A stretch of 64,000 nucleotides of DNA from Eubacteriales bacterium (GTDB taxonomy: Bacteria; Bacillota; Clostridia; Oscillospirales; CAG-272), in the NCBI GenBank assembly GCA_045633625.1, contig JAZQYP010000038.1, positions 16,384 to 80,383 of the forward strand, given 5' to 3'. Within the stretch, counting starts at the first letter, position 1. Each line of letters begins with the position of its first letter. Position numbers and translations under genes: made by a program. Below the pieces are notes generated by a model that was not told the DNA's origin, ran no database searches, and saw nothing but the letters and a program-made list of their open reading frames with translations. Positions 47,501-62,609 of this stretch are shown one piece after another.

Positions 47501-50500
47501 CAGTGGACTTGGCGGTATCCGCGATATGACAAACGGTTATGAAACGGTTACTATCAAACCCGTTATAACTAATGCTTTCGAGTTTGTAAACTGTTCTGTT
47601 GACACCGTTCGCGGAACGCTTACAAGTAACTGGAAAATAGAAAATGGTACGACTATTATGGAGATCGTTATCCCCGTAGGTACAACCTCGACCGTATATT
47701 TCCCGACTACAAATACAGCAGAAATTTTTGCAAACGGAGTTGCTCTTGCATCTCACGAGGGAATATCGGATGTTTCAGTTGACGGAGAATACGTAAAGGC
47801 TACCGTTGAAAGCGGAAGCTATACTTTTACACTTGACGCTCCCGAAAAGATGCTTCCCACAGTTGACGGTCTGATTTGTGAAAACGAGTACGCGTGGACG
47901 TCGGGAAAGTACGACAGAAACGTAACTGTTGACGGTGAATTCTACACTGTAACCGCCTACAACGATACTCAAATTCTCACGTCTCAGTTCTGGATGGATT
48001 ATGACGATGAATACCTTTATATCGCATATCGCGACAGAGTTCCCGGATATAAATCAGGACTCATTCTTGATCTTTATCCTAACCCCAAGGCAGGTGTTAA
48101 GGATCAGCTGACGATTGAGCTTTCATTCTCACGTGCGGTGGGTGAGAGCCAATATGCAGAGTATGACGATATAACTATAGCTGTTTATCAGTACGTTGAT
48201 AACGTTAAAAATAACCGAGTCACGCTGAATGCCGACGATTATATCGTAGATTCTGCGCGTTCGTGGCGCGATGACAACATAAAAAACAACAATAGCATTG
48301 AGCTTAAAATCAGCCGCGCAGCTCTTGCGTCATACGCAAAATCAACTTCGCTTGATAGTCTTGGTTTAAGAGGATTTATTACATCCGGAGCAAGTGCGGG
48401 ATACTACCCCGAAGCATGCTTTGGAGATAAAGGCTCTACCGTATTCCCGAATTATCTCCATGCCCATATCGGATACCATATATTCGGACTCAAAGAGCTC
48501 GATTCTATGGATCTTGGTGACTACGGACAAAAGAAGCTGGTTATAGGAAATGCTACTAAGGCAACCGCTGACGGTGTTGTAAAGAGCGATGAATATAGCT
48601 TCTCGCTCCTTGCAAAGAAGACAGAGGATGCTGCAAACACTTATTTCCACACAGCTAACGCTGCAACGTTTGCCAACACGGAATATGTGAATTTCCATAT
48701 TGGTGCAGACGAGAATAACATTTACATTGCGGCAGAGCAACAGGATTCGGATCTTGCCGCTTGGGCGAATGGTCTTTACATAAAGCTTGGCGCGAATCGA
48801 TCCTCCACAGATATTCCGATTCGAATCTATTTGGCATACTTAAATGAGCAAAAGCAACATACTCCCGAGATAGCTACTCCCGAGGCTTCTTTCGTGGCGT
48901 CTAATTATTATTCGTCACATATAGCCAAGGCAAACACCGAGACAAAGGTTATAACGTACGAGATAGTGCTCAACAGGAAGCATATCGCAAAGGTTTTGGG
49001 TGTAGAGGATACCGATGATCTGCTTATTGCTATTTCTCAAAAGACGAATAATAGCAATGGAATGTTCGTTCTTGGCTTCCAAAGCTCTTCTATTCCTTCC
49101 GATTACGTTTACACCGATTTTCCTGTATACGGATATCCTCACGTGCTCGATATGAGTGCTCTCAATGTGTGCGTTCACGATTTTGATAACGGAGCCGTCA
49201 AAAAGGAGGCAACGTGCTGGAGCAAGGGAATTATGCTCTATTCTTGCGAGCTTTGCGGTGAGGAGAGGGAAGAAATAATTCAACCCTTGACACATGAAGA
49301 GATAACTCTTCCCGCAATCCCTGTTTCTTGTACAGAGCCGGGTCTTACCGAAGGAAAAGCTTGTAGAGTATGCTTTGCGGATATTGTAGAGCAGCAAGAG
49401 ATATTGAGCGAAGGACATACCTATGAGGATGATTACGACTCTACCTGTAACGTTTGCGGAGAAACAAGAAGCATAACGTCAGCGCAAGTTAATACTTCGG
49501 GTGGCTCTGCGTCAATAGATGTCTTCGGATGCTACGTTCTCAATGAGGCACCGAATGTGATTTCTGTAAGTATTAATTGGGAGGATATGGAAGTATTTAC
49601 TTATGTGGTAAATGCTGAATGGAATTCGACAAATTACACTGAAGAAAAAACGAAAGGTGAATGGAAAATTTCTCCTGTTAAGATAGATATTGTTAATCAC
49701 TCAAATCAGAAGATAGGTGCAAAGCTTGATTTTACACCCGTGGAGGATACAACGGATGTTTACGGAATCAAGGGTAAATTTATCCTGTCGAACGTTTCGA
49801 GTAAAGAAGAGCTTGATGCGGTAAAGGCTGTAACTTCTATTGAATTGGCGAGCGCAGCTAAAAATAATGCGGCAGTGAGCCAGACGGTATATTTCCAGAT
49901 CACAGACGGCACGCTTACTTCTGATATAAACGAGACGATACTTGGAAACATAACCGTTACTATATCTGCTCTCGGCAACGATTCCGAGGACGAAAAGATT
50001 GCAGAGTATGAACGGTATCTTGAAACTGTAACATATCTTGATTTTGAGCTTACAGGCTCGCACAAGCCCTACTACATGGGCAGATGGTTTGCAAAAGAGC
50101 TTAGAGGCGTAGACTATATGGCAACTCTCACGGACGGAAGTCTATTGTATTTCCTTGTTGACGGTGCGGAGAGCTTTGACCTTGACTTTTACGTAAATAC
50201 CACAAGCTTTACTCCTTATTTTGCTTATTCCATTGATGGCGGAGCACCCGTAAGACAGCTTATTACCGATAAGACTGTATATCTGCCCGACACGGGTAAG
50301 CATACGGTAAGAATAATCGCTGACGGAATGGATGAGAGCGAGGGTAAGTGGAATTATGAAAAGGGATTTTACCTCAAGTCTGTTACTGCCTCCGAGGGCG
50401 GAGAAATTCGCGGAATAAAGCCTACCAATAAGACGATCTTCTACTTTGGTGACAGTATTACAGAGGGAGTATATGCGCTTGAGGCCGGTCCCATAGGAAA

Positions 50501-50996
50501 TAGCGCTACCAATTCCTATCCTTGGCATTGCTCAGAGAAGCTCGGCGCGGTTACTTATAGCGTTGGTTACGGTGGATCGGGAGTTACGACGACGGGTTCG
50601 TTCAACACCTTTATAAACGCTATCGACTATATAAGTGCTCATAGAGAGGTTACAGACGGCATAACACCCGACGTGATCGTTATAAATCACGGCACAAATG
50701 ACTATGGAAAGACAACAACAGAGGCATTTTATGTGGGACTTAAGGAAGCGATCGACAGACTCCGCGAAAAGTATCCTGATACGCCTATCGTTTATATGAT
50801 TCCTTTCTCAGGGCGTATGGCTGGTGACATCAGAATTGTCATTGCCGAGTATGAAAATGCCTACGTCGTTGAAACCACAGGCTGGGACATCTCCTTGACT
50901 GATAGCTTCCATCCTAATGCCGAGGGCGCAAAGAAGGCTGGAGAAAAGCTTGCAGATGCACTTGTGTCTATATTCGGAGAGGAGTTCTTTGAATAA
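44520..50996 (+). CDS. Giant (2158 aa) secreted multidomain enzyme: GH78 rhamnosidase, two CBM9-like modules, a Cys-rich module, a beta-sandwich region and a C-terminal SGNH/GDSL esterase
   Basis: The N-terminal roughly 1010 aa are colinear with the upstream GH78 (for example RLPEMATGWA, FSYKGYEYIQISGY). The C-terminus has SGNH blocks FYFGDSITEG, GYGGSG, INHGTNDY and DSFHPN. Confidence 0.9.
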   Translation: MKNTRRILSVLLIVSLILGPISIFIPVSAAESAITVSDLKVNSIDTPLGIDTTPVFSWINNASGYGRAQSAYQIIVSSSYKNAVSHTGDMWDSGKTSGSTNYDIAYAGTALESRTVYFYSVRVWDENDTASEWSDIARFETGIIDDAEWTAEWIGALKNTIPEGETYDLEGANWIWNGTKTDGKYPASNPWFMTSFNVSTAKTVRSAYMTAAFYDYGIVYVNSVYTAEKVENWKNTKQARIVDITDVVTSGTNYIVASCGNKNAGDAGFIAKVYINYTDGTQDVFYTDDTWKVRASDPSTAWWADQFNDSEWSNATVIGEYGCSPWGTTVTVDYDNLQFADSAPMLRKTFNVEKEVLRARAYVIGLGLFEMTVNGTLPDDTVLNPVDSLYEAREFVQNSGTVRYRVFDVTKLLNAGENAVAIELAGGYYDCEEVVAVDWNNAAWRDDPTARMELLIEYTDGTSETIITDESWKSYTNGPTTRYTVFCGEVYDARNEVDDWQLANFDDSSWKGVRVMEAPYADILYQTIEPMRKVKSFAPLSVTKHDNGTYIVRLPEMATGWASIAFDAPAGTLIKISYAERLNKDNGNIKVPLSGSDHLLQTDVYVCSGEAGETYEPKFSYKGYEYIQISGYTGELTVDDITCYVVATDVEQTGSFETSSEFVNELHELMLRTMVNNMQGKPTDTPVYEKLGWTGDFNVAMDTFNYNFNTINFTGNFLHNLRDTGKPDGHLNEYAPSPIISGWNGPVWTQMYVKGIYEAWKVYGQLSLSVEHYDYMRAQAQYNITQIGDNWIWEDNGSSLTLGDWASPNGGTSPDEGGMICNTAAVYNGLRMLAEIADELGKTADAAEYRSAAANIYTAFNTKFYNATKGYYETGYWGGSTSRNQYRQTSNLVPLAYGLCPEEYRESVVNNLIEQIKKNGFHLDTGCIGTELLLPFLCDEGYEDVAIAILLQDTYPSWGYYLAEGSTTLWEMYKDSGIRSYDHYFLGTYDEWFYSGLGGIRDMTNGYETVTIKPVITNAFEFVNCSVDTVRGTLTSNWKIENGTTIMEIVIPVGTTSTVYFPTTNTAEIFANGVALASHEGISDVSVDGEYVKATVESGSYTFTLDAPEKMLPTVDGLICENEYAWTSGKYDRNVTVDGEFYTVTAYNDTQILTSQFWMDYDDEYLYIAYRDRVPGYKSGLILDLYPNPKAGVKDQLTIELSFSRAVGESQYAEYDDITIAVYQYVDNVKNNRVTLNADDYIVDSARSWRDDNIKNNNSIELKISRAALASYAKSTSLDSLGLRGFITSGASAGYYPEACFGDKGSTVFPNYLHAHIGYHIFGLKELDSMDLGDYGQKKLVIGNATKATADGVVKSDEYSFSLLAKKTEDAANTYFHTANAATFANTEYVNFHIGADENNIYIAAEQQDSDLAAWANGLYIKLGANRSSTDIPIRIYLAYLNEQKQHTPEIATPEASFVASNYYSSHIAKANTETKVITYEIVLNRKHIAKVLGVEDTDDLLIAISQKTNNSNGMFVLGFQSSSIPSDYVYTDFPVYGYPHVLDMSALNVCVHDFDNGAVKKEATCWSKGIMLYSCELCGEEREEIIQPLTHEEITLPAIPVSCTEPGLTEGKACRVCFADIVEQQEILSEGHTYEDDYDSTCNVCGETRSITSAQVNTSGGSASIDVFGCYVLNEAPNVISVSINWEDMEVFTYVVNAEWNSTNYTEEKTKGEWKISPVKIDIVNHSNQKIGAKLDFTPVEDTTDVYGIKGKFILSNVSSKEELDAVKAVTSIELASAAKNNAAVSQTVYFQITDGTLTSDINETILGNITVTISALGNDSEDEKIAEYERYLETVTYLDFELTGSHKPYYMGRWFAKELRGVDYMATLTDGSLLYFLVDGAESFDLDFYVNTTSFTPYFAYSIDGGAPVRQLITDKTVYLPDTGKHTVRIIADGMDESEGKWNYEKGFYLKSVTASEGGEIRGIKPTNKTIFYFGDSITEGVYALEAGPIGNSATNSYPWHCSEKLGAVTYSVGYGGSGVTTTGSFNTFINAIDYISAHREVTDGITPDVIVINHGTNDYGKTTTEAFYVGLKEAIDRLREKYPDTPIVYMIPFSGRMAGDIRIVIAEYENAYVVETTGWDISLTDSFHPNAEGAKKAGEKLADALVSIFGEEFFE
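50004..50996 (+). repeat. Duplicated module, copy 1 (C-terminal beta-sandwich plus SGNH domain of the giant ORF)
   Basis: Long identical peptide runs are shared with 51183-52181: VTYLDFELTGS, YMATLTDGSLLYF, GKHTVRIIADGMDESEGKW, NSATNSYPWHCSEKLGAVTYSVGYGGSGVT, DSFHPNAEGAKKAGEKLADALV. Confidence 0.9.
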
Positions 50997-51032
50997 TCTC
51001 AGAGAGCACTAAATAAGTTAGGACGCTTGATT

Positions 51033-52181
51033 ATGATGAAAAAAATATTAGTGATTGTAATGACACTCAGTATTTTGGTATCCTTTTGCGCTTGTCGGTC
51101 AAATACCGACAGCGCAGAGGATATAGGTGAAACACAGATGAAAGAAACACTTGAAACAATGTCTGCTGAAGAGATAAGAATGACGGAATATACCGAATAT
51201 CTGAGTAGTGTGACATATCTTGATTTTGAATTAACAGGATCGAATGAGCCATATTATATGGGAAGATGGTTTGAAAAAAGTCTTCGCGGTGAAAAATACA
51301 TGGCAACGCTTACTGACGGCAGTCTTTTGTATTTCCTTATAGACGGTGCCGAGAGCTTTGATGTGATATTTTATGAGAATACTACCATTTATACACCATA
51401 TTTTGCCTACTCGATTGACGGTGGAGAGCCTGTAAGGCAACTGATCACCGATAAGACTGTGATGCTTCCCGATGCTGGCAAGCATACCGTAAGAATAATT
51501 GCTGACGGTATGGATGAGAGTGAAGGGAAATGGAAATATGAAAAGGGCTTTTGTCTTAGTGATATAATTCCTTCAGAGGGAGGATCAATATTAGGGATAA
51601 AACCCAAAAATAAGGTCATATTCTACTTTGGAGACAGCATAACCGAAGGCATCTACGCACTTGAAGCAAGTCCTCTTGGTAACAGTGCCACAAACTCTTA
51701 TCCGTGGCATTGCTCAGAAAAGCTTGGCGCGGTTACTTACAGCGTAGGATACGGAGGATCGGGGGTCACAAGAGAGGGTTCCTTTAATACCTTTATTATG
51801 GCTATTGATCACATAAGCGCGAACCGAGAAGTGTCGGATGGCATTATGCCCGACGTCATAGTTATAAATCACGGCACGAACGATTATGGCAGAGCTACCG
51901 ATAAGGAATTTGTCGAGGGACTCAAACTTGCCCTTGACCGGTTGCGTGAAAAGTATCCCGAAACACCAATAGTGTATATGGTTCCGTTCTCACAGCGAAA
52001 TGCGAGAAATATCATTAACTTAATTCCTACCTATGAAAACGCCTACTTTGTTAAAACAAATTCGTGGGGAATTAGCTGTACCGACAGCTTTCATCCAAAC
52101 GCTGAGGGCGCAAAGAAAGCAGGCGAGAAGCTTGCGGATGCACTTGTCGATATATTTGGCGAGGAGTTCTTTAATAATTAA
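51033..52181 (+). CDS. SGNH/GDSL esterase lipoprotein (stand-alone copy of the giant enzyme's C-terminal module)
   Basis: Lipoprotein-type signal (LVSFCAC), then sequence colinear with residues about 1830-2158 of the upstream ORF, with SGNH blocks conserved. Confidence 0.87.
   Translation: MMKKILVIVMTLSILVSFCACRSNTDSAEDIGETQMKETLETMSAEEIRMTEYTEYLSSVTYLDFELTGSNEPYYMGRWFEKSLRGEKYMATLTDGSLLYFLIDGAESFDVIFYENTTIYTPYFAYSIDGGEPVRQLITDKTVMLPDAGKHTVRIIADGMDESEGKWKYEKGFCLSDIIPSEGGSILGIKPKNKVIFYFGDSITEGIYALEASPLGNSATNSYPWHCSEKLGAVTYSVGYGGSGVTREGSFNTFIMAIDHISANREVSDGIMPDVIVINHGTNDYGRATDKEFVEGLKLALDRLREKYPETPIVYMVPFSQRNARNIINLIPTYENAYFVKTNSWGISCTDSFHPNAEGAKKAGEKLADALVDIFGEEFFNN
51183..52181 (+). repeat. 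Duplicated module, copy 2
   Basis: See 50004-50996. Confidence 0.9.
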
Positions 52182-52597: not shown

Positions 52598-52617
52598 AGG
52601 CACTCAGTGTAACGAAG

Positions 52618-52660
52618 ACAAGGCGCTCGAGCATATGTTCGGGCGCCTTGTTTTATTTTA
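52618..52660 (+). terminator. Orphan terminator hairpin (near-copy of 25311-25350)
   Basis: caaggcgctcga gcatatgt tcgggcgccttg followed by TTTTATTTT. There is no upstream + strand ORF within about 430 bp. Confidence 0.55.
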
Positions 52661-52815: not shown

Positions 52816-53010
52816 ATGCAAGAGATGAATCAAATGCCAGAACGATGGTTTTCGACAAAGGAAATGTGTGCCTACCTCGGCGTAACACGTGACACTTTGC
52901 TTACATGGATAAATGAAAAGGGAATGCCAGCGCACAAGGTCGGCCGTGGTTGGAAGTATAAGCCCAGCGAGGTCGATGAGTGGATCAAGAGCGGAAAGGC
53001 GGCTGAATAA
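52816..53010 (+). CDS. Excisionase/MerR-type helix-turn-helix DNA-binding protein
   Basis: 64 aa. STKEMCAYLGVTRDTLLTWINEKGMPAHKVGRGWKYKPSEVDEWI fits the excisionase-family HTH pattern (..L.V...T.Y.W...G..P..K.G..W.....E...W.). Confidence 0.75.
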   Translation: MQEMNQMPERWFSTKEMCAYLGVTRDTLLTWINEKGMPAHKVGRGWKYKPSEVDEWIKSGKAAE

Positions 53011-53723
53011 TGACAGAAGCAACGGTAGAAATACTTACAAGTATTATTTCAAGTGTTTTGGGTGGATTGGTTGGCGGTCTTTTTACCTTTCTTGGAGTAA
53101 AAATGACAATTAACCACGAGGAGAAAAAAGAAAGACGAGCAAAAGAAGAATTGATTTTGCAAAGTCGTCCTAGATTGGATATAGTGGATTTCTTTGAAAT
53201 TGACAAATATACAACTAGTTCAAAAGCAGACGAAAGTCTTATAATTGCAACCATTGAAGAGTTTGATAATGGTCAATTTATGTATGACGACGAAATTCTT
53301 AATGAAGAAAAATGGGCTTCGGTAGAATATATTTTGAAGAATATTGGTTCAACAGAAATTGATCATATGTATTTTTCAACCAATTATATGAAAACCACCT
53401 CTGTGTTTGACAATTTCGGTATTTATGGTAGACACTTCCCTGAGAAAAATATGTTGAATTATTCTGTTTATTCTAACAGGAAAATAAAACCCAGAGAAAC
53501 TTTTTGCTTGCAGATAAATTTTCTTGATGATAAAATTATTGCTTCACAGGTTCGTGCTTTGATGACGATTTGGTTAGTAGATATAAATGGTAATTGGTGG
53601 AAACAACAATTGTTCGCTCCTTATAAACAGATTGACAATTCTCTTAAAACAGCGCATAAAGAATGGTATGATTCTGTTAATCAAGCAGAAGAAACCAGAT
53701 GTTATTTTTATCCTGTAGAATGA
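53010..53723 (+). CDS. Uncharacterised 237-aa single-pass membrane protein
   Basis: N-terminal TM helix (ILTSIISSVLGGLVGGLFTFLGV), then a charged linker and a soluble domain. The start overlaps the HTH stop (TAATG). No family recognised. Confidence 0.7.
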   Translation: MTEATVEILTSIISSVLGGLVGGLFTFLGVKMTINHEEKKERRAKEELILQSRPRLDIVDFFEIDKYTTSSKADESLIIATIEEFDNGQFMYDDEILNEEKWASVEYILKNIGSTEIDHMYFSTNYMKTTSVFDNFGIYGRHFPEKNMLNYSVYSNRKIKPRETFCLQINFLDDKIIASQVRALMTIWLVDINGNWWKQQLFAPYKQIDNSLKTAHKEWYDSVNQAEETRCYFYPVE

Positions 53724-53753: not shown

Positions 53754-55493
53754 ATGACAGATAAAGAATTAAAGAAACTGAAAGACGACCTTTGGCACTC
53801 GGCGGACGTGCTTCGTTCAAGTGCGCATTTGGCGGCAAATAAATACGGTCAACCCATTCTTGGCTTGATCTTTCTTCGCTATGCAGATATTCTCTACAAG
53901 CAGCACAAGGACGAGATTGAGGCAGAATTTAAGAAATACGAAGGCACTCGTATGGAAAAATCCATTAAGGAAATCTCCATTGAAAAATGCGGCTTCTATC
54001 TGCCCGAGTGCGCTTACTATGATACCATCAATAATGCGCCCGATACGGCAGAAAAAGCGAAGCTTGTAAAGCTTGCGATGGAAGCAATAGAGGAATACAA
54101 TCCTAAGCTTGCAGGCGTCCTTCCCAAAGAAGTGTATGCAGGGCTTGTTCCCGACGAAGAACCCGAGCTGCTTTCCCGTATCGTTAAGATTTTCAAGGAT
54201 ATCCCCGAGAATATCAGCATCGATCTTTTCGGTGAGATTTACGAATACTTCCTCGGCAACTTCGCACTTGCCGAAGGCAAGGACGGCGGAACATTCTATA
54301 CACCTGCAACCGTTGTTCGTTATATGGTAGAGGTATTGCAACCCGAAGCGGGTGCTGAAAAGAAGTTCCTCGACCCTGCTTGCGGTTCGGGCGGTATGTT
54401 CGTGCAGGCGGCGAGATATATGCACAAGCACAACGCAAGCGCATCGGCTATGATGAATTTCCGTTGTTATGGTGTAGAAAAAGAACCCGATACGGTAAAG
54501 CTCGCAAAGATGAATCTGCTTCTTAACAACGTGCGCGGAGAGATTACCGAAGCCAACTCTTTCTATGCCGATCCTTACAACGCCTTTGAACAGTTTGACT
54601 ACGTTATGGCAAATCCGCCCTTCAACGTAGATGAGGTTGTTTACGAAAAGGTAAAGGACGATAACCGTTTCAATACTTACGGTGTGCCGAGAAATAAGTC
54701 TAAGTCCACCAAGAAGGAATCCGACAAGAAAGAAACTGTACCGAACGCAAACTATCTGTGGATCGGATATTTTGCGGCGGCGCTGAATTGGCAAGGCAAA
54801 GCAGCACTCGTTATGGCAAACTCTGCATCCGATGCAGGCGGTAGTGAATACGAGATCCGCAAGAAAATGATTGAGGACGGCATTATCAGTCAGATGGTAA
54901 CGCTTCCGTCCAATATGTTCTCGTCGGTTACACTTCCCGCAACACTTTGGTTCTTTAACAAAGCAAAAACGGAAACAGAAAAGCGCGATGAGATCCTGTT
55001 CGTTGATGCGAGAAACGTTTTTACACAGGTTGACAGAGCGCATAGAAAGTTTACCGACGAACAGATCAAAAATCTCGGCATCATTACCCGTCTTTACGAG
55101 GGCGATACCGAGGCGTTTGCCGCATTGATCGCAGAATATAAGTCTGAAATGGAAGTTGCTCCCGAGGTTGCCGAGGACAAGGATACCAAAACGAAAGCGT
55201 ATTGGCAGGAGCAGATGGAATGGCTGACAAGCCGTTTCCCCGACGGCGTTTACCGTGATGTAGTGGGTCTTTGTAAGGTTGCCAAAATTGAGGGCGAGGA
55301 CGGAATTAAAGATCAGGACTATTCGCTCAATCCCGGACGCTACGTTGGTGTAGTCATCGAGGATGACGGAATGACCGCAGATGAGTTTAAGGCAGAAATG
55401 CTGTCTCTTAATGATGAGCTTGCGAAGTTGAATGATGAGGCGCGCGAGCTCGAAACTAAAATTTCAGACAACTTAAAAGGATTATTTGAATGA
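53754..55493 (+). CDS. hsdM: Type I restriction-modification system, methyltransferase subunit
   Basis: HsdM_N-like N-terminus (LWHSADVLRS), AdoMet motif I LDPACGSGGMF and catalytic motif IV VMANPPFN. Confidence 0.95.
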   Translation: MTDKELKKLKDDLWHSADVLRSSAHLAANKYGQPILGLIFLRYADILYKQHKDEIEAEFKKYEGTRMEKSIKEISIEKCGFYLPECAYYDTINNAPDTAEKAKLVKLAMEAIEEYNPKLAGVLPKEVYAGLVPDEEPELLSRIVKIFKDIPENISIDLFGEIYEYFLGNFALAEGKDGGTFYTPATVVRYMVEVLQPEAGAEKKFLDPACGSGGMFVQAARYMHKHNASASAMMNFRCYGVEKEPDTVKLAKMNLLLNNVRGEITEANSFYADPYNAFEQFDYVMANPPFNVDEVVYEKVKDDNRFNTYGVPRNKSKSTKKESDKKETVPNANYLWIGYFAAALNWQGKAALVMANSASDAGGSEYEIRKKMIEDGIISQMVTLPSNMFSSVTLPATLWFFNKAKTETEKRDEILFVDARNVFTQVDRAHRKFTDEQIKNLGIITRLYEGDTEAFAALIAEYKSEMEVAPEVAEDKDTKTKAYWQEQMEWLTSRFPDGVYRDVVGLCKVAKIEGEDGIKDQDYSLNPGRYVGVVIEDDGMTADEFKAEMLSLNDELAKLNDEARELETKISDNLKGLFE

Positions 55494-56215
55494 CAACAGA
55501 AGAACTTTTTGAATCGGTTGGATTTGTTGGAGAATATTACTCGCAAATGTCTGATTTTTATAAAGACAATTTTGATTTGGAAGAGGATATGATTTCGTTT
55601 TTTATAAAAATATTCAAAAATGATAAAAATGACAAAATTCCTCGTCAAATGATGAATCAAGTACAGCAGCTTGTGTCGATTGCAACCGATATTGATCAGA
55701 TTCGTCCTGCGCGTGATCCGCTTAGAATGTTCTTTATCAAAACATGTTTGGAAGCGTTATGTGAGTTGTCGGGAATGAACAACAAAAAAGACAAACCCAT
55801 TTTTTACGAGATATTTCCAACCTTTATCAGCACGGAGGGGAAACAATATATTCTTGATAATTTTTTGTTAATGAGTTTCGATGACATATATATGAACCAT
55901 AAATATGAAGCATATCACGAATTAACCATTGATGATTTTTTTGAAATTATTAAAGCAGTTCGAGATATCGTGGCACATGAGGGAAACTATTGGGAGATGC
56001 AATTCTTTGCACATAACACAACAGACACGACCTGGGTTGTATCTTTGGAAACGAATCGAAAAATACTAAAATCTTATCAATACAAGTGTGAAGAGAATAT
56101 AACACGAGAATATCACTTTGAAACGACAATGCAATATGATAGGTTTATATATTATTTCATCGAAGCGTGCATTGGCTTTATTGTCAATTACATTGATAGA
56201 AAGGAGGCGGTATAG
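55490..56215 (+). CDS. Uncharacterised 241-aa protein with R-x4-H (HEPN-like) motif, embedded between hsdM and hsdS
   Basis: The ATG overlaps the hsdM stop (ATGA). Motif VRDIVAHEG lies at 55958-55984. No P-loop and no TM helix. Composition is A/T-rich. Confidence 0.75.
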   Translation: MTTEELFESVGFVGEYYSQMSDFYKDNFDLEEDMISFFIKIFKNDKNDKIPRQMMNQVQQLVSIATDIDQIRPARDPLRMFFIKTCLEALCELSGMNNKKDKPIFYEIFPTFISTEGKQYILDNFLLMSFDDIYMNHKYEAYHELTIDDFFEIIKAVRDIVAHEGNYWEMQFFAHNTTDTTWVVSLETNRKILKSYQYKCEENITREYHFETTMQYDRFIYYFIEACIGFIVNYIDRKEAV

Positions 56216-56218
56216 ATA

Positions 56219-57346
56219 ATGAAAACTACGAGATTTAAACTAAAAGACATATTAAAAATCAAAAACGGACGTGACCATTCTCACCTTGAAATAGGCGATT
56301 ATCCTGTTATAGGTAGCGGTGGTATTATGAGATATGCCGATCAATATCTGTATAATGGTGAAAGTGTTTTGCTTCCCCGTAAGGGTACATTGGATAACAT
56401 TCAATATATAAACGGAGCTTTTTGGACTGTTGATACTTGCTATTATACCGATATAAACAAAAATATTGTCAACCCTTATTATCTATATCGTCATTTGCGA
56501 AGTCTTGATTTGAGCGGGCTTGACTCGGGTGCGAGTATTCCAAGCATGACATCAAAATGTTATTATAATATAAAAATAGATTTGCCTTGCCTCCAAATAC
56601 AAAATCAAATTGCTGATATTCTTTCGACCTATGATGATCTGATTGAGAACAACAATCGCAGAATTGCTCTTTTGGAGAAAGCGGCGCAGGAGCTTTACAA
56701 GGAGTGGTTTATCCGCTTCCGTTTCCCCGGTTATGAAAACGCCAAGTTTGAAAATGGTCTGCCCGAGGGGTGGAATGTAAAGAGAATGAATGATTTTTGT
56801 TACGTTACAGACGGAACACACGATACTCCCAAGCCTTTAGACGAAGGTTTTCCGCTGATAACAGGCAGATGTATCAAAAACGGCTTTGTTGACTTTGATG
56901 AAGCTTATTGTATAAGCAAAAAAGATCACGAAAATATCAAAAAGCGCAGCGGGCTTTCCTCGGGCGATATTCTTTTTAGCAATATCGGCACAGTTGGTAA
57001 CTGTTGTATCGTGGATTATAGTAGAGAGTTCAGCGTAAAAAATGTGATTATTTTCAAACCCAATGATATGGTACAAACCGCATATCTCTATTATTGGATG
57101 ACGAGCCATTCTATGCAAGAAATATTTGCAACGCAAACGAATGGTGCATCACAACAGTTTGTTGGTCTAACCTTTATGCGCCGATATAAAATTCTTGTTC
57201 CCGAACAGGAAATTTTGACAGCGTTTGGAGATAAGATTTTGCCAATATTGGAGCAAAAGAGGCTGTTACATAATAACAATTTGAATCTCGCAAAACAGCG
57301 TGATTTACTCTTGCCGCGCCTTATGAGTGGCAAATTGGAGGTGTAA
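56219..57346 (+). CDS. hsdS: Type I restriction-modification system, specificity subunit
   Basis: 375 aa with two target-recognition domains separated by the conserved helical spacer (RIALLEKAAQELYKEWFIRFRFPGYE) and the C-terminal repeat (NLAKQRDLLLPRLMSGKLEV). Confidence 0.92.
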   Translation: MKTTRFKLKDILKIKNGRDHSHLEIGDYPVIGSGGIMRYADQYLYNGESVLLPRKGTLDNIQYINGAFWTVDTCYYTDINKNIVNPYYLYRHLRSLDLSGLDSGASIPSMTSKCYYNIKIDLPCLQIQNQIADILSTYDDLIENNNRRIALLEKAAQELYKEWFIRFRFPGYENAKFENGLPEGWNVKRMNDFCYVTDGTHDTPKPLDEGFPLITGRCIKNGFVDFDEAYCISKKDHENIKKRSGLSSGDILFSNIGTVGNCCIVDYSREFSVKNVIIFKPNDMVQTAYLYYWMTSHSMQEIFATQTNGASQQFVGLTFMRRYKILVPEQEILTAFGDKILPILEQKRLLHNNNLNLAKQRDLLLPRLMSGKLEV

Positions 57347-57348
57347 AA

Positions 57349-59280
57349 ATGGATAATCGAGTAAAGTATTATCCGCCTACAGATTTGTTCTTCGGGCATA
57401 ATCTTTCTAAAATTGAAGCAATCGAGGTTCCTGCTTTTGAGGCAATTGATATTAACGATGCGATTGAATTTTTTCAAATAAAAAGATACTTAGATACGGG
57501 AACTCGGTCAAAAACTTGGAGTGATGAAGCATATGAGGAATATAAAGCAAAATGCGAATCTCTTTCAAGGCTGACAAAACGTTTTTTTAATCAACTCAGC
57601 GACGATAATATAATTGATTATTATAATAGGATCGAAATGGGGTATCATTCCGACTTTTGGGTTCTATTTGACAACTGCAAGTTATTCAATAAAATAAAAA
57701 ATGAAACGTTTGAGGCATTGATCAATGGAGATAAAATCTCTCCTCACGATTTGTTTTTGCACAAAAATATTGTTCGCAAGTATGGTAATGAACTAAGAAA
57801 CTATATAATTCAGAATGAATACTGTATTATCATTCTTTTGCATGTGTATGAGCAGGACTATACTGATAGCGAAAAACTCATTTTGCCTGCCGAATTGACG
57901 GGAGAAGATATATGTAACTACCTTGAAAGTTATATCGATGGAGAACACCCGAATACAAATCATCTTAGCACTATTATCGATATGCACTGCACAAATCAAT
58001 TCCCAATCACCGATGAAATACGGTTGAAGGCAAAAAGAAGATACGAAAAAGAACTTGAAAATATATCTCAAACGGGTGTCAGCATTTCGCACGGAATCCA
58101 AATATCCTTTAACCCCGATCAGGAAAAAGAAAAGATTGGTACGCATAACGACCATGAATTTTCAATTTCATATAGCACAAAGTGGCTATTGGAAACACTT
58201 GATTACCCAAGCATACTAAACAACTTTATTTATCTGTTTGAGTTTGTGGACGTGCCTCAAATGAGGTGTTCCCATGTGAATAGGATATCGCAATCGGGTG
58301 TGTTTGAGCGTGTTCTCGCCTCTAAATCGTCGAGAGCATATCCTCATAATTACGCTTTCGGTTTTTCCAATGGAATAGCCTCAATGCAAATGCATGCCTA
58401 TTACGACTTTTTGGCAAGGCAAAATATTCGCTTGGAAGATGTAATAAAGTGGTTTTTTACTGAGCAAATACAATCCGAATTTGGTTGTGCGGAAATTCGG
58501 TTGTCTATGCCTTCTTCCGATAGTACTTATGCGGAAAAGTGTTCTTCCATCATTACCGCTTTTGAATCGGTTTTGAAACAATACTCGCTATATGTTAAAA
58601 ACGGAGAGATTGATTTTGAGCTTGTCGGGATGTCAACAACTCCGGTGCTTTTTGCTAATATTAAAAGTTTAGTCGAAGACAAGTATATCTACGGCGTTGG
58701 CGACGATTATAAGCGATTGTCCTTTTGGTTTTTCTCTGATCAATGTACGTTCTCTTTTATCGAGCGAATACACAAAGAAGGTCGTAATTATGATTGCTTT
58801 ATAGACCTAATGTTAAAGGAAACGGTTTATACTTACGATTATCGAGAAGAAGAACTATGGGCTTTTGAAAATATGGCAAGTTACGATCTTATAGCTATAG
58901 GTGACGATGGGAAAATAACTCTCAAAAACTTAGCAAAATTAGCGATGTTGCGTGACTTGTTCGAAAATGATGTTATCAGCAAGTGGCACTATCCACCGGA
59001 AGCGAAAGAGGCTATTGGTGATTTTATAGAAAAAGGCATTATAACAACCAAGTCAACTCTGTTTTCACAACCGGAAATTGATTACCTTAATTATCTGCTT
59101 AATCGTGCAGAATATACCAACGGCTTGGAAATTCGCAATAGATATATACACGGAATACAGCAGGTAAGCACCAATGAGGACGAGCATAGGCAAAACTACT
59201 TTATGTTGCTTAGACTTTTTGTTCTGCTTGCAATAAAAGTTAATGATGATTTTTGTTTGCGTGATGAACAGAACCAATAA
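57349..59280 (+). CDS. Uncharacterised 643-aa protein with C-terminal R-x4-H (HEPN-like) motif, embedded between hsdS and hsdR
   Basis: It starts 2 nt after the hsdS stop. Motif EIRNRYIHG lies at 59128-59154, followed by one predicted hydrophobic helix. No P-loop, TM helix or signal peptide. Very A/T-rich codon usage. Confidence 0.8.
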   Translation: MDNRVKYYPPTDLFFGHNLSKIEAIEVPAFEAIDINDAIEFFQIKRYLDTGTRSKTWSDEAYEEYKAKCESLSRLTKRFFNQLSDDNIIDYYNRIEMGYHSDFWVLFDNCKLFNKIKNETFEALINGDKISPHDLFLHKNIVRKYGNELRNYIIQNEYCIIILLHVYEQDYTDSEKLILPAELTGEDICNYLESYIDGEHPNTNHLSTIIDMHCTNQFPITDEIRLKAKRRYEKELENISQTGVSISHGIQISFNPDQEKEKIGTHNDHEFSISYSTKWLLETLDYPSILNNFIYLFEFVDVPQMRCSHVNRISQSGVFERVLASKSSRAYPHNYAFGFSNGIASMQMHAYYDFLARQNIRLEDVIKWFFTEQIQSEFGCAEIRLSMPSSDSTYAEKCSSIITAFESVLKQYSLYVKNGEIDFELVGMSTTPVLFANIKSLVEDKYIYGVGDDYKRLSFWFFSDQCTFSFIERIHKEGRNYDCFIDLMLKETVYTYDYREEELWAFENMASYDLIAIGDDGKITLKNLAKLAMLRDLFENDVISKWHYPPEAKEAIGDFIEKGIITTKSTLFSQPEIDYLNYLLNRAEYTNGLEIRNRYIHGIQQVSTNEDEHRQNYFMLLRLFVLLAIKVNDDFCLRDEQNQ

Positions 59281-59297
59281 TACCAAAGGAGAAAGAT

Positions 59298-62200
59298 ATG
59301 TCAAGATTTATATACGAAGACGACATAGAAAAAGCGTTACTCGACAAGTTAGCTGCCGAGCCGTTTTGCTATGACGTCATCACTTGTGATCCTTCGACAT
59401 CATCAAAAGAGAATATAAACGACGGAACGGGACGCGCAAGCAAAAAGCAGTGTGTTCTGCCCGCCGTGCTGCGTTCCGCGCTGATTCGTATCAATCCCAC
59501 GATCCCTGCCGAGGTGCTCGACGGTATCGTAAAGGATCTGTGCCGCGATTTCACGGGTGTGGATATGAAGGCGGTCAACTACAAGCTCTATCAGCAAATC
59601 CGCAACTACATAAAGGTGTCGGTAAGGCGGGGCGGCAAGCAGGACTTTGATTTTGTCAAGCTGATTGATTTTGACAAACCCGAAAACAATACTTTTACCG
59701 CAGTTTCGCAGATGTGGATCGAGGGGCGTTTTAATTGGCGTCGTCCTGACATTATCATCTTTGTCAACGGACTTCCGCTTGTATTTGTGGAGCTTAAGAA
59801 CAGCGACGTTAAGGTGGAAGAAGCCTATAATCGCAATCTGAAAAGCTATCTCAAGGACGTTCCCAATCTCTTTGCTTTCAATCAGATCTGCGTGCTTTCC
59901 AACGGACTTGAAACAAGGCTCGGTGCGTTTTCCGCTACCTATGACTATTTCTTTGAATGGCTGAAAGCAAGTGAGAATGAGAGAATTGACCGCAAGGCAA
60001 TCTCTGAAGACGGTGTTTCGCTGTCTTACTTTGCGGACGGTTTGTTGCCGAAAGCAAATTTGATTGACTACATTGAAAACTTCATATTGTTTGAGAATCA
60101 GTCAATCAAGATTATCGCAAAGAACCACCAATATCTCGGTGTTAATAATTTGATTGAGTCGGTTAAAGATCGCAAGGCGTTGCAGGGCAAGCTCGGCGTA
60201 TTCTGGCATACGCAAGGAAGTGGTAAATCTTACTCGATGGTTATGTTTACCCGCAAGGTCAAGCGTAAGATTGAGGGAAACTTTACCTTCCTTATCATCA
60301 CCGACCGCGACGACCTTGATACACAGATCCACAAGAACTTTGTTCGTACCGAGGTTATCGGCGACAAGGAAGAATGTCAACCCAAGAACGGTGCGCAGCT
60401 TCGTGAATACCTGCAAACCAATAAATCGTTTATCTTTACGCTGATTCACAAGTTTAATTACGATAAGACCAAGAAGTATCCCGTGCTTTCCGAGAGGGAT
60501 GACATTATCGTTTTGGTTGACGAAGCTCACCGCACGCAGTACAAGAGCCTTGCGGAGAATATGAGAACAGCGCTTCCCAATGCCAATTATATTGCCTTTA
60601 CGGGAACACCCCTGCTTGGCGCTAAACGTTTGACAAACCAATGGTTTGGTAACTACGTTTCGGAATATAACTTTGCACAATCGGTCGAGGACGGCTCTAC
60701 CGTGCCGCTGTTTTATAGCCGCAGAGTGCCCGAGGTTTGGCTTGAAAACGATTTCCTGGACGATGACGTACTTGACATTATTGAGGACGAAAACCTCAAT
60801 GAATCCGAAACAAAGCTCCTTGAAAATTCCTCATCGAGAATCCTTGAGGTTATCAAGCGTGATGACCGACTTGATAAAATTGCAAGAGATATCGTACATC
60901 ATCTGCCTCGTCGCGGATTCCGTGGCAAAGCAATGGTAGTATCGGTGGATAAATATACTGCCGTAAAGATGTATGATAAGGTCCAGCACTATTGGGGTGA
61001 GGAAAAGAAAAAGCTTGTTGCCGAAAGGAACAAAGCCGCAACTAAAGAGGAACGAGACCAGATTTCCGCAATGATCGATTATATGAACAGGATGGAGATG
61101 GCAGTTATCGTTTCCGAAGAAGCTGACGAGAATCAAAAGTTCGCGGCGCAGGGGCTTGATATTTCTTCTCACCGTGCCAAGATGAACGAGATCACACCCG
61201 AAGGAAAGGACATTGAAGATCGTTTCAAAGACCCTACTGATCCACTTCAGCTTGTATTCGTATGCGCAATGTGGCTGACGGGATTTGACGTTAAGAGTCT
61301 TTCGTCTGTTTATCTTGATAAGCCTATGAAGGGACATACTCTGATGCAGGCAATTGCACGTGCAAACCGTGTATTCCCAACGAAAACTTGCGGTATTATC
61401 GTGGATTACGTCAACGTTTTCAAGTATATGAAGAAGGCTCTTTCGGACTATGCTTCGGGCGATGATGACACCGAATTTCCGGCTAAAGACATCGATCAGT
61501 TGATCGTTAACATTGATTCTTGTATTGATGAAACCGATGCCTTCTTGAAGGAAATGGGCATTGATCTTGACAAGATTATTGCCGAGGCTTCTACTTTCGA
61601 TAAGCTTGACGAATTGCGTGCGGCATATAATAAAATCATTGCTACCGACGATGCAAAGGATCGTTTTAAGGTCTTGGCGAACACAACGATTAATCTATAC
61701 GAAGCTGCTAAACCCGAGATATTCGAGCAGAGTTGGACAAACGAAAAGTTCTCGCCAATATCCTATTTGCACGGTCTTTTCTACAATTACATTGACGATG
61801 AAAAGATCAATCGTGCGCGTCTTCGTATGGCGCAGGTGCTTGACACAAGCATTTCTTCAAACGTGAACTTAGATGCCGATTCCGAGTATGTGATTCACGG
61901 CTCAAAGGTTATCGATCTTTCAAAAATTGATGTGGACGAGCTTCGTTTGGAAATCAAAAAGACTCCGTACAAGGCAATAGAAATCGACGATTTGAAAAAG
62001 TATTTGGAAGAAGCTCTCCAAAAGATGATTAACAAGAATTGCACTCGTGTGAAGTTTTCGGAGCGTTTCAAAGGCATCGTTGACAGATATAACGCCGGAG
62101 GATCGGAGAATGAGGATTACTACGAGCAGTTAATCAAATTGCTCGAAGAAATGCAAGCCGAGCAGAAACGTGCCGATACGGAAGGGTTGAGCGAGGAAGA

Positions 62201-62507
62201 ACTTGAAGTTTACGACCTTTTGATTAAAGGCAAGAAGCTCACAAAAGCCGAGGAACAGAAGGTGAAGCTTGCCGCAAAGAATCTCTATAAGAAGCTCACG
62301 GAAGAAAAGGCAACTCTTATGGTGGTGGATTGGTATAAGGACGATCAGCCCACAGAGCGAGTCAAAAACGCAATCAAAGAGTCGCTCAACATTGACCTTC
62401 CCGAGTGCTATGACAAGGATTCTTTCAATGCCAAAACCGTTCTCCTCTTGAACCATTTCATTGATATGGCGGTTCAAGGATACGGATGGGTTGGAGCGAG
62501 CGCATAA
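59298..62507 (+). CDS. hsdR: Type I restriction-modification system, restriction (helicase-nuclease) subunit
   Basis: 1069 aa with N-terminal PD-(D/E)xK region (RPDIIIFVNGLPLVFVELKN) and SF2 helicase motifs I HTQGSGKS, II VLVDEAHRTQ and VI QAIARANR. Confidence 0.95.
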   Translation: MSRFIYEDDIEKALLDKLAAEPFCYDVITCDPSTSSKENINDGTGRASKKQCVLPAVLRSALIRINPTIPAEVLDGIVKDLCRDFTGVDMKAVNYKLYQQIRNYIKVSVRRGGKQDFDFVKLIDFDKPENNTFTAVSQMWIEGRFNWRRPDIIIFVNGLPLVFVELKNSDVKVEEAYNRNLKSYLKDVPNLFAFNQICVLSNGLETRLGAFSATYDYFFEWLKASENERIDRKAISEDGVSLSYFADGLLPKANLIDYIENFILFENQSIKIIAKNHQYLGVNNLIESVKDRKALQGKLGVFWHTQGSGKSYSMVMFTRKVKRKIEGNFTFLIITDRDDLDTQIHKNFVRTEVIGDKEECQPKNGAQLREYLQTNKSFIFTLIHKFNYDKTKKYPVLSERDDIIVLVDEAHRTQYKSLAENMRTALPNANYIAFTGTPLLGAKRLTNQWFGNYVSEYNFAQSVEDGSTVPLFYSRRVPEVWLENDFLDDDVLDIIEDENLNESETKLLENSSSRILEVIKRDDRLDKIARDIVHHLPRRGFRGKAMVVSVDKYTAVKMYDKVQHYWGEEKKKLVAERNKAATKEERDQISAMIDYMNRMEMAVIVSEEADENQKFAAQGLDISSHRAKMNEITPEGKDIEDRFKDPTDPLQLVFVCAMWLTGFDVKSLSSVYLDKPMKGHTLMQAIARANRVFPTKTCGIIVDYVNVFKYMKKALSDYASGDDDTEFPAKDIDQLIVNIDSCIDETDAFLKEMGIDLDKIIAEASTFDKLDELRAAYNKIIATDDAKDRFKVLANTTINLYEAAKPEIFEQSWTNEKFSPISYLHGLFYNYIDDEKINRARLRMAQVLDTSISSNVNLDADSEYVIHGSKVIDLSKIDVDELRLEIKKTPYKAIEIDDLKKYLEEALQKMINKNCTRVKFSERFKGIVDRYNAGGSENEDYYEQLIKLLEEMQAEQKRADTEGLSEEELEVYDLLIKGKKLTKAEEQKVKLAAKNLYKKLTEEKATLMVVDWYKDDQPTERVKNAIKESLNIDLPECYDKDSFNAKTVLLLNHFIDMAVQGYGWVGASA

Positions 62508-62576
62508 CCATACAATTATTTGTTTAAGGTGAACACAAAACGAAGTATGGTGATAAACCTTAACACACACAATTCG

Positions 62577-62609
62577 ATAGGGACGGATATCCGTCCCTAT
62601 CTTTTTTTA
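62577..62609. terminator. Rho-independent terminator after hsdR (between convergent genes)
   Basis: Stem atagggacgg / ccgtccctat, loop atat, then cT7. Confidence 0.75.

Follow-up and report, generated by a model that had tools for sequence, protein, structure and literature searches.

A Type I restriction operon and its embedded genes

The window, by which we mean the whole stretch of 64,000 nucleotides that was analyzed (contig JAZQYP010000038.1 of a Eubacteriales bacterium), carries on its forward strand a Type I restriction-modification (R-M) operon in which two further genes are lodged among hsdM, hsdS and hsdR, one of them a 241-aa ORF here termed X. The features of the locus, numbered from the first letter of the window, are the following:

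52615..52654, + strand: strong terminator-like hairpin 5' of the operon (18-bp stem with 9 GC pairs, then a T-run)
53010..53723, + strand: 237-aa ORF upstream of hsdM with a hydrophobic N-terminal segment; variable accessory cargo
53754..55493, + strand: hsdM, Type I methyltransferase subunit (Pfam HsdM_N 1.4e-18 and N6_Mtase 2.8e-75; PADLOC MTase_I 1.6e-181)
55490..56215, + strand: X, 241-aa ORF of an unnamed HEPN-like family, probable RNase-type defence effector
55751..55753, + strand: E88 of X, acidic and nearly invariant (at least 90% of sequences), in the second of the predicted core helices (H76-94)
55961..55978, + strand: R158-x4-H163 motif of X (VRDIVAHEGNYW), putative HEPN catalytic dyad at the C-terminal end of helix H147-164 (AF2 model)
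56219..57346, + strand: hsdS, specificity subunit (Methylase_S 5e-31)
57349..59280, + strand: 643-aa ORF in the hsdS-hsdR slot, PADLOC candidate PDC-S56 (PDLC05039, E 5.6e-205, full length)
59134..59151, + strand: R596-N-R-Y-I-H601 motif of the 643-aa protein
59298..62507, + strand: hsdR, restriction/translocase subunit (HSDR_N, SWI2_SNF2, T1R_D3-like, T1RH-like_C; TIGR00348 1.8e-145)
62576..62601, + strand: terminator-like hairpin ending the operon (11-bp stem with 7 GC pairs, then TTTTTTT)

The hsd operon is flanked by terminators on both sides and has none within, no comparable + strand terminator being found between the first hairpin and position 62576. By their domain matches, the flanking genes hsdM, hsdS and hsdR are clean Type I subunits. 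The first target-recognition domain of hsdS (56225-56599) is swapped with respect to the nearest relative of the locus (L019), whose X protein is 98% identical. The 237-aa ORF upstream of hsdM has a GC content of 32% and matched no family in the Pfam, NCBIfam, PADLOC and PHROGs scans; a homologue lies upstream of hsdM in another locus (L001, E 4e-51), while L019 has unrelated sequence at that place.

The placement of X described by the sequence-only reading was confirmed by the ORF list and the sequence: its start ATG sits in the hsdM stop, forming an ATGA overlap (55490-55493), and its stop TAG ends at 56215, leaving a 3-nt gap to the hsdS start at 56219.

A conserved family and the evidence on a HEPN assignment

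X is a real, conserved gene. Its family has 84 close clusters, and a profile search of 1.84 billion representatives returned 438 clusters (50% identity) at E<=1e-3, found mostly in gut Clostridia and also on Vibrio plasmids, in Brevibacillus and in Acidobacteria. Three other identities were considered and ruled out: a spurious ORF, by the 438 homologous clusters and a model pLDDT of 90; a fragment of hsdS or hsdM, by the lack of similarity to either and an independent confident fold; and a C-protein-like regulator, by the absence of an HTH.

The protein carries FFEIIKAVRDIVAHEGNYW, in which R158 is encoded by cga (55961-55963) and H163 by cat (55976-55978), the sole R-x4-H within X. Roughly 0.2 such motifs would be expected by chance in 241 residues, so that the motif alone is unremarkable and becomes meaningful because it is conserved across X homologues. 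Both residues are invariant in 34 homologues and constitute the only invariant columns in an alignment of 126, down to ~18% identity; the motif, the most conserved feature of the family, is present in 120 of 122 representatives. Near-invariant positions in the 126-member alignment are F23, E88 and G165, and the consensus around the motif is R-[NDCH]-x3-H-[ED]-G-x-Y-W; HEPN domains typically have a polar residue after the arginine of their motif.

Remote-homology searches yielded no match at threshold. In scans against Pfam, NCBIfam, PADLOC and PHROGs the sole match of X was a noise-level one to Sec7-like_HDS, and 0 of the 5027 HMMs of PADLOC-DB v2.0.0 were matched; X itself matches no curated HEPN model, and no such model comes up to its threshold. 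The recurrent sub-threshold Pfam matches among the 126 relatives all fall into HEPN families: Abi_2 (PF07751) was matched by five (best E 1.5e-3) and HEPN_Apea (PF18739) also by five (best E 0.014), these being the only Pfam families matched by more than one member, while single members match Ribonuc_2-5A and DUF4145. Distant members have been named by NCBI "HEPN domain-containing protein" or "Apea-like HEPN domain-containing protein"; one of the latter (P0242) has no Pfam match. In another member (P0215) the family sequence is joined to a genuine HEPN_AbiU2 domain, to which the family profile was related by hhalign with a probability below 1%. The hhalign match obtained to AbiU2 with the broad alignment (A2) is an artefact, as A2 contains P0215. 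Profile searches of A2 and of alignment A1, the latter also used for the genome scan for X loci, against PDB sequences gave chance matches only.

The AF2 models are confident, with pLDDT values of 90.4 for X and 94.1 for a minimal family member. X is predicted to have a core four-helix bundle (H50-71, H76-94, H147-164 and H216-240), with an alpha/beta insert between core helices 2 and 3 (residues 105-141) and a beta-hairpin between helices 3 and 4. In both models the R158/H163 motif closes core helix 3 (H147-164 in X, H117-134 in the minimal member), after which come a loop and the last helix; E88 of X lies in core helix 2. HEPN domains have been described as carrying Rx4-6H where core helix 3 ends and the loop towards helix 4 begins, a conserved acidic residue in helix 2 close to the motif, and frequently an insert between helices 2 and 3 (PMC3710099); the predicted helix of E88 fits that of the acidic residue.

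Foldseek comparison of the full-length X model with PDB and BFVD gave nothing better than E 0.18. For the minimal member, the best PDB matches were AbiV (9bj7, 9bj6), the HEPN protein 4nqf, 1wol, HepT (6m6w) and Csx1 (8y7f), all weak in the case of the HEPN matches (E 0.47-3, TM 0.36-0.53). AbiV, 4nqf, 1wol and HepT resemble the minimal member in size and four-helix core, whereas full-length X with its inserts remains unmatched; AbiV needs an RNA antitoxin, and none was found near X.

Among the known HEPN families, Abi_2 (AbiD/AbiD1/AbiF) is the best recurrent weak Pfam match, aligned over the RNxxAH region. Like X, its members are single small proteins, and the family has been described as "embedded in R-M operons" (PMC3710099); the scores, however, are far under the gathering cut-off (25.6 bits, against 15.6 bits for P0160, the only match whose bit score was given). 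The AbiD/F group has been characterized as type III toxin-antitoxin systems with an upstream RNA (PMC13064643). X differs in having neither a repeat array nor intergenic space upstream, the latter because of its ATGA overlap with hsdM; no type III antitoxin-like tandem repeats relevant to X and no Rfam matches were detected at the locus. ApeA, a single-protein HEPN RNase defence found in R-M operons of some bacteria (PMC3710099), is linked to X through the weak matches mentioned above and the NCBI label of one distant member, but it has a beta-rich N-terminal sensor domain of ~300 aa that is missing from X.

The sequence-only reading had taken the R-x4-H of X for a putative HEPN motif, and the motif is indeed most likely a HEPN-type catalytic one. 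This reading rests on several weak lines that converge, namely the motif at the end of predicted helix 3, E88, the Abi_2 and HEPN_Apea matches and the Foldseek results of the minimal member. Together with the models, they give moderate support to placing the X family in the HEPN superfamily (Pfam clan CL0291).

Genomic neighbourhoods of X

The order hsdM-X-hsdS is found in two X clades. In other loci X follows MmeI (six species representatives and locus L014) or a DUF4379 zinc-finger/MTES_1575 REase-like gene (10 species of Clostridia). Further contexts are McrBC-X, an EcoRI-type MTase with GmrSD/HNH followed by X, HsdR-X, and X followed by a GIY-YIG gene, while at one locus X precedes a Type III methylase (mod). 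Almost always X comes immediately after a restriction-type gene in the same orientation, with an overlap or a very short gap between them, and its clades track the type of partner. The linkage of the family to restriction genes is strong. Some members (L002, L038, L047 and L049-51) have no recognisable restriction gene, which indicates that coupling to restriction is not obligatory. A tblastn search of X against phage genomes gave no match, and X is therefore not typical phage cargo.

At the locus under study, hsdM and X form one colinear DNA block that has diverged as a unit, with 94.6% identity to L019 and ~75% to two further loci (L020 and L021). The hsdM-X slot is stable in close relatives, while the hsdS-hsdR slot is hypervariable, containing PDC-S56, an ABC ATPase, a KAP NTPase, a TIR protein, an M78 peptidase with or without a PIN protein, or nothing. 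Embedded defence genes are common in Type I operons (Payne et al. 2024, bioRxiv 10.1101/2024.01.29.577857), of which this locus offers a clean natural example. The PADLOC phage defence candidates recognised through guilt-by-embedding follow the genetic logic seen for X, being nested in Type I, BREX or DISARM operons; among them are PDC-S56 and HEC-08, a DUF3644 HEPN protein whose Rx4-6H histidine is required for defence (10.1101/2024.01.29.577857), but X itself figures in no model of PADLOC-DB v2.0.0.

Candidate functions of X and of the 643-aa protein

From the comparisons above we infer a HEPN fold, RNase activity and a defence role for X, which would make it a probable representative of an unannotated HEPN-like family carried as defence cargo in R-M operons. 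The account that we favour, and consider rather probable, is that X is a small single-domain HEPN-superfamily protein acting as an RNase effector, independently of PDC-S56. By analogy with PrrC, AbiV, AbiF and ApeA, it would be a metal-independent RNase that stops phage growth by cleaving, upon infection, RNA of the host or of the phage. It would be co-transcribed with, and translationally coupled through the ATGA to, the restriction-type gene that precedes it, here hsdM, and in this Type I lineage it and hsdM have been passed on as one block. Several observations weigh against this account: the lack of any curated HEPN model at threshold; the full-length model without a Foldseek match and the E values above 0.4 of the minimal member; the hhalign comparisons, which link the family neither to the AbiU2 domain nor to PDC-S56; and the negative searches at the locus for anything that would silence a toxic RNase, be it an antitoxin, an array of RNA repeats or an RNA of a known family. 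Should the inference hold, the antiviral RNases would gain a large HEPN family that as yet has no name, with ~440 clusters (50% identity), one that current tools miss, given the results with Pfam, NCBIfam, PADLOC and PHROGs.

A possible but unlikely alternative is that the restriction enzyme encoded upstream, here the HsdM/HsdS complex, keeps X switched off as a latent RNase, and that X is set free, as a second defence line, once this enzyme has been disabled by an anti-restriction factor of a phage. The precedent is PrrC-EcoprrI (PMC3710099). The anticodon nucleases PrrC and RloC share with X an Rx4-6H HEPN-type motif; they too are nested among hsdM, hsdS and hsdR, co-transcribed with them, and presumed to be second-line RNA-cleaving defences (PMC3710099; 10.1101/2024.01.29.577857). 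The position of X just 3' of a restriction-type gene, the inheritance of X and hsdM as a block, and the tracking of partner type by X clades, consistent with co-evolution with the partner, all speak for such an arrangement; a protein partner encoded upstream would also take the place of the antitoxin, gene or RNA, for which the search was negative. On the other hand, X has its partners in six or more unrelated restriction architectures, for all of which one specific inhibitory interface is difficult to envisage, and some members (such as L002 and L038) have no restriction neighbour at all. Nor does X resemble these nucleases in build: in PrrC and RloC a large N-terminal ABC/Rad50-like ATPase regulates the nuclease, while X, with its 241 aa, has no P-loop domain by Pfam and NCBIfam and no detectable sequence similarity to them, and accompanies restriction genes other than Type I as well.

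A broader version, which we regard as speculative and doubtful, would make the X family a general restriction-coupled HEPN guard that fires when the upstream enzyme is neutralised or overwhelmed. Translational coupling, together with co-evolution specific to each partner, would have wired it time and again to unrelated architectures, six at the least (Type I, MmeI, McrBC, GmrSD/HNH, Type III and the DUF4379 zinc-finger/Vsr-like nuclease). If this were true, the module of zinc-finger/Vsr-like nuclease and X seen in the 10 Clostridia species would be a new two-component defence system. The consistent position of X behind many different restriction enzymes provides a way to test whether RNase back-up of the PrrC type is wider than the single classical case.

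It is improbable, in our judgement, that X is not a HEPN RNase and has instead another fold or chemistry (such as that of a DNA nuclease, of a phosphodiesterase or of a regulator that binds nucleotides, its R/H dyad being convergent), or that it is a non-catalytic accessory subunit for restriction or methylation. Every HEPN line is sub-threshold, the full-length model lacks a structural neighbour, and X possesses additional beta elements as well as a helical extension at its N-terminus in which F23/F28/F37 are conserved; its stable position between hsdM and hsdS is also where an accessory subunit might be expected. Nevertheless, the recurrent weak matches are exclusively to HEPN families, and the published HEPN description (PMC3710099) agrees with where the models put the motif and the inserts, and would also suit the helix-2 acidic residue. 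The occurrence of X after MmeI, McrBC and other enzymes that have no subunit in common with Type I systems speaks against an accessory role peculiar to the latter.

Returning to the favoured account of X as an independent effector, the 643-aa ORF must be considered, since the sequence-only reading had seen a putative HEPN motif in it as well and had suggested that the two proteins could act as a pair. That motif is real: R596, N597, Y599 and H601 (RNxYxH) are invariant in five homologues with 24-71% identity. HEPN active sites arise at dimer interfaces, the two ORFs share one terminator-bracketed operon and each has an invariant R-x4-H motif, yet a nuclease-plus-regulator pair or HEPN heterodimer within the R-M complex is very improbable, and the comparative data argue against an obligate pair. 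Co-occurrence of X, strong with R-M genes, was nil with the 643-aa family, a PDC-S56 homologue being present in 0 of the other 52 X-bearing loci. In L019 the hsdS-hsdR slot holds an AAA_21/AAA_15 ABC-type ATPase, and the swap of this cassette is a clean one, with one border right at the stop codon of hsdS and the other right at the start of hsdR. An hhalign comparison of the X and PDC-S56 families showed no relationship (probability below 1%).

PDC-S56 is a separate, exchangeable cargo of the hsdS-hsdR slot, without linkage to X. The sequence-only reading had also called two HEPN-motif genes in one R-M operon unusual, a view that is not supported in the light of the embedded defence genes already documented (10.1101/2024.01.29.577857); descriptions of R-M operons with a HEPN gene inside go back to 2013 (PMC3710099). 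The 643-aa protein is listed by PADLOC as a single-gene candidate; our metagenome scan for PDC-S56 returned one locus only, and homologues stand alone, without R-M genes or an X relative, on a gut contig and on plasmids of Bacillus, Pseudoalteromonas and Enterococcus.

Operon layout and exchange of its cargo genes

Six genes, from a 237-aa ORF to hsdR, lie on one strand of the window with terminators at both ends; scans of family libraries identified HsdM, HsdS and HsdR as textbook Type I subunits. The 241-aa ORF between hsdM and hsdS is referred to here as X.

Features of the operon
52615-52654 and 62576-62601, +: terminator-like hairpins bracketing the gene row
53010-53723, +: ORF of 237 aa, hydrophobic helix at its N-terminus; matches no family
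53754-55493, +: hsdM, Type I subunit
55490-56215, +: X (241 aa), starting within the hsdM stop (ATGA) and ending 3 nt before hsdS
55961-55963, +: R158 of X
55976-55978, +: H163 of X
56219-57346, +: hsdS, Type I subunit
57349-59280, +: 643-aa ORF (PDC-S56)
59298-62507, +: hsdR, Type I subunit

Both the placement of X, overlapping hsdM and 3 nt short of hsdS, and its R158/H163 pair were confirmed as the sequence-only reading had described them. The GC content of X (33%), PDC-S56 (36%) and the 237-aa ORF (32%) is low compared with hsdM (47%), hsdR (45%) and the window (45%), which supports the status of these three genes as cargo. The 237-aa ORF has a homologue at the same position in locus L001 (E 4e-51) and an unrelated gene stands there in L019; this site may be a third cargo position.

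L019, a MAG assigned to Eubacteriales, has an X 98% identical to that of the window and thus probably represents the same or a sister species. Aligned to the window, hsdM and X form one block of 94.6% identity; the first TRD of hsdS (window 56225-56599) was unalignable amid 91-95% identity in the rest of hsdS and the hsdM/X block, a sign that specificity was swapped between close relatives. The interval from hsdS to hsdR was fully replaced (window 57352-59285 vs L019:10010-11623), with breakpoints that coincide exactly with the stop of hsdS and the start of hsdR, and holds PDC-S56 in the window versus an AAA_21/AAA_15 ATPase in L019; the alignment resumes in hsdR at 91% identity. This slot was also compared in L001, L003, L009, L018, L021 and L022, where its contents were a KAP NTPase accompanied by a 175-aa ORF, a set of three ORFs ending in a TIR-domain protein, an unknown protein of 272 aa, an M78 peptidase either by itself or joined by a PIN_12 protein, or nothing. 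In this Type I lineage the hsdS-hsdR junction is a hotspot for cassette exchange, and since slot contents differ among relatives while X is kept, the operon has one stable cargo position (X, between hsdM and hsdS) and one hypervariable position (between hsdS and hsdR).

Elsewhere in the window, a 2158-aa secreted multi-domain protein (44520-50996, +) precedes a lipoprotein-like ORF of 384 aa (51027-52181, +). The C-terminal ~330 residues of this ORF (TYLDFELTGS...SFHPNAEGAKKAGEKLADAL) closely resemble the C-terminus of the larger protein, by eye suggestive of a duplicated SGNH-esterase-like module.

The X family and its HEPN-like features

X is a real, conserved gene. A word-indexed search returned 84 homologous clusters, none bearing a functional name or Pfam domain, and a profile search over 1.84 billion representatives returned 438 clusters at E<=1e-3, of which 298 reach E<=1e-10; most are 190-290 aa long. 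Invariant residues in 34 close homologues include R72, P73, R75, C86, R158, H163, G165 and Y167. Across 126 diverse members, down to ~18% identity, only the R158 and H163 columns are invariant, with F23, E88 and G165 retained in 90% or more; in general form the motif reads R-[NDCH]-x3-H-[ED]-G-x-Y-W. X was unmatched in every curated library scanned (Pfam, NCBIfam, PADLOC, PHROGs), and the family, which seems not to have been described before, goes unseen by current annotation resources.

Confident AF2 models were obtained for X of the window (pLDDT 90.4, pTM 0.89) and for a 182-aa minimal member (pLDDT 94.1, pTM 0.90). They agree with three features of HEPN domains, namely an Rx4-6H at the end of a helix (core helix 3) with a loop following, frequent inserts between helices 2 and 3, and a conserved acidic residue in helix 2 (PMC3710099): in the X models helix H147-164 ends with the R-x4-H, residues 105-141 make up an alpha/beta insert that separates H76-94 from H147-164, and E88, a candidate for the helix-2 acidic residue, lies within H76-94. 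Foldseek with the minimal member placed AbiV (9bj7/9bj6), the HEPN protein 4nqf, 1wol, HepT 6m6w and Csx1 on top, all weakly (E 0.5-3, TM 0.36-0.53); the full-length X model returned nothing.

Among the 126 members, the only Pfam families matched more than once were Abi_2 and HEPN_Apea, each in 5 members (best 1.5e-3 and 0.014, respectively), with single matches to Ribonuc_2-5A and DUF4145, both also HEPN families. Above the curated threshold the family had no HEPN match, its profile was negative against PDB sequences and, by hhalign, against the AbiU2 domain, and membership tests assigned X to neither Abi_2 proper nor ApeA proper. Distant members on Vibrio plasmids are labelled "HEPN domain-containing protein" by NCBI, another being an "Apea-like HEPN domain-containing protein". 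Several independent lines from sequence and modelling, individually weak, together make it likely that X belongs to the HEPN superfamily. One of these lines is P0215, a member of 396 aa in which the X domain (residues 1-190) is naturally fused to a genuine C-terminal HEPN_AbiU2 domain (2.6e-17), which would be a tandem HEPN arrangement if the X domain is itself HEPN.

X and the 643-aa ORF

The 643-aa protein is a full-length match to PDC-S56, a single-gene candidate in PADLOC (E 5.6e-205), and R596-N-x-Y-x-H601 is invariant across five homologues at 24-71% identity, so that the second R-x4-H motif proposed for this operon is genuine. The suggestion that both proteins act as a functional pair found no support: a PDC-S56 homologue was present in 0 of the 52 further loci with X (contigs from metagenomes, NCBI and GTDB representatives), its homologues are solitary, on plasmids of Bacillus, Pseudoalteromonas and Enterococcus and on a gut contig, with neither X nor R-M genes, hhalign detected no relatedness between the two family profiles, and, most tellingly, the slot is swapped in L019. 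From these comparisons we conclude that X and PDC-S56 are not partners. Nor was it supported that two such genes in one R-M operon are very unusual. The Type I operon of L018 likewise has two RNase-type cargo genes, X and a PIN_12 protein.

Genomic neighbours and proposed role of X

The hsdM-X-hsdS order is seen in two clades of X, one comprising window/L009/L019-22 and the other L001/L003/L018. In other loci X follows an MmeI-type Type IIL enzyme (L014, L023-28; with a Schlafen/AlbA_2 gene between them in L025), McrBC (L006-8), an EcoRI-type methylase with a GmrSD/HNH nuclease (L043) or HsdR (L004, adjoining Kiwa, and L044). In L048 and L040 X instead comes first, ahead of a Type III mod gene and a GIY-YIG/DUF4357 gene, respectively. 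A small number of members are found either at junctions with a prophage or recombinase (L002, L041) or surrounded by genes of no known role. In 10 species of Clostridia, most of them represented by Acutalibacteraceae MAGs (L029-31, L033-37, L039, L042), X stands directly 3' of a DUF4379/MTES_1575 protein (in L029, 7294-8949 followed by X at 8971-9681) of 550-770 aa, in which 6-9 DUF4379 treble-clef zinc-finger repeats flank a weak MTES_1575/Vsr-like REase core. This looks like a conserved two-gene module and may be a new defence system.

In a neighbour-joining tree the X clades follow partner type, which together with the neighbours in the 52 loci shows that X is defence-island cargo with a long-lived, strong preference for the position directly 3' of restriction-type genes. 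A distant relative (26% identity) on the Vibrio harveyi conjugative plasmid pvh3 (L054, 5986-6558), annotated as a HEPN domain-containing protein, has a resolvase gene on one side and a Phd/RelE toxin-antitoxin pair on the other, an NYN-domain gene standing further downstream; the family thus also travels on plasmids outside Firmicutes.

This placement fits the known embedding of HEPN genes in R-M operons (PMC3710099) and the "guilt-by-embedding" principle, Type I RM systems frequently holding embedded genes (Payne et al. 2024, bioRxiv 10.1101/2024.01.29.577857). Effector genes, HEPN or other, nested in R-M operons are already known from the PrrC paradigm, the 2013 HEPN census (PMC3710099) and the 2024 embedding screen (Payne et al. 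2024); the useful products here are the definition of the X family, the recognition of two cargo slots in the operon, and the module of zinc-finger/Vsr-like nuclease and X that recurs across species.

We lean towards X being an R/H-dependent HEPN RNase effector that would be co-expressed with the restriction system and act independently of PDC-S56. A PrrC-style guard of the upstream restriction enzyme would suit the tight coupling of X to that gene and the partner-specific clades, but the diversity of partners and the existence of solitary members make it unlikely; besides, PrrC has an ATPase regulator whereas X comes without one. As for a silencing partner of the favoured RNase effector, the locus showed no antitoxin gene, repeat RNA or Rfam match. 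In ApeA-like single-protein HEPN defences the sensor lies within the one protein, and the N-terminal helices and alpha/beta inserts of X could serve likewise.
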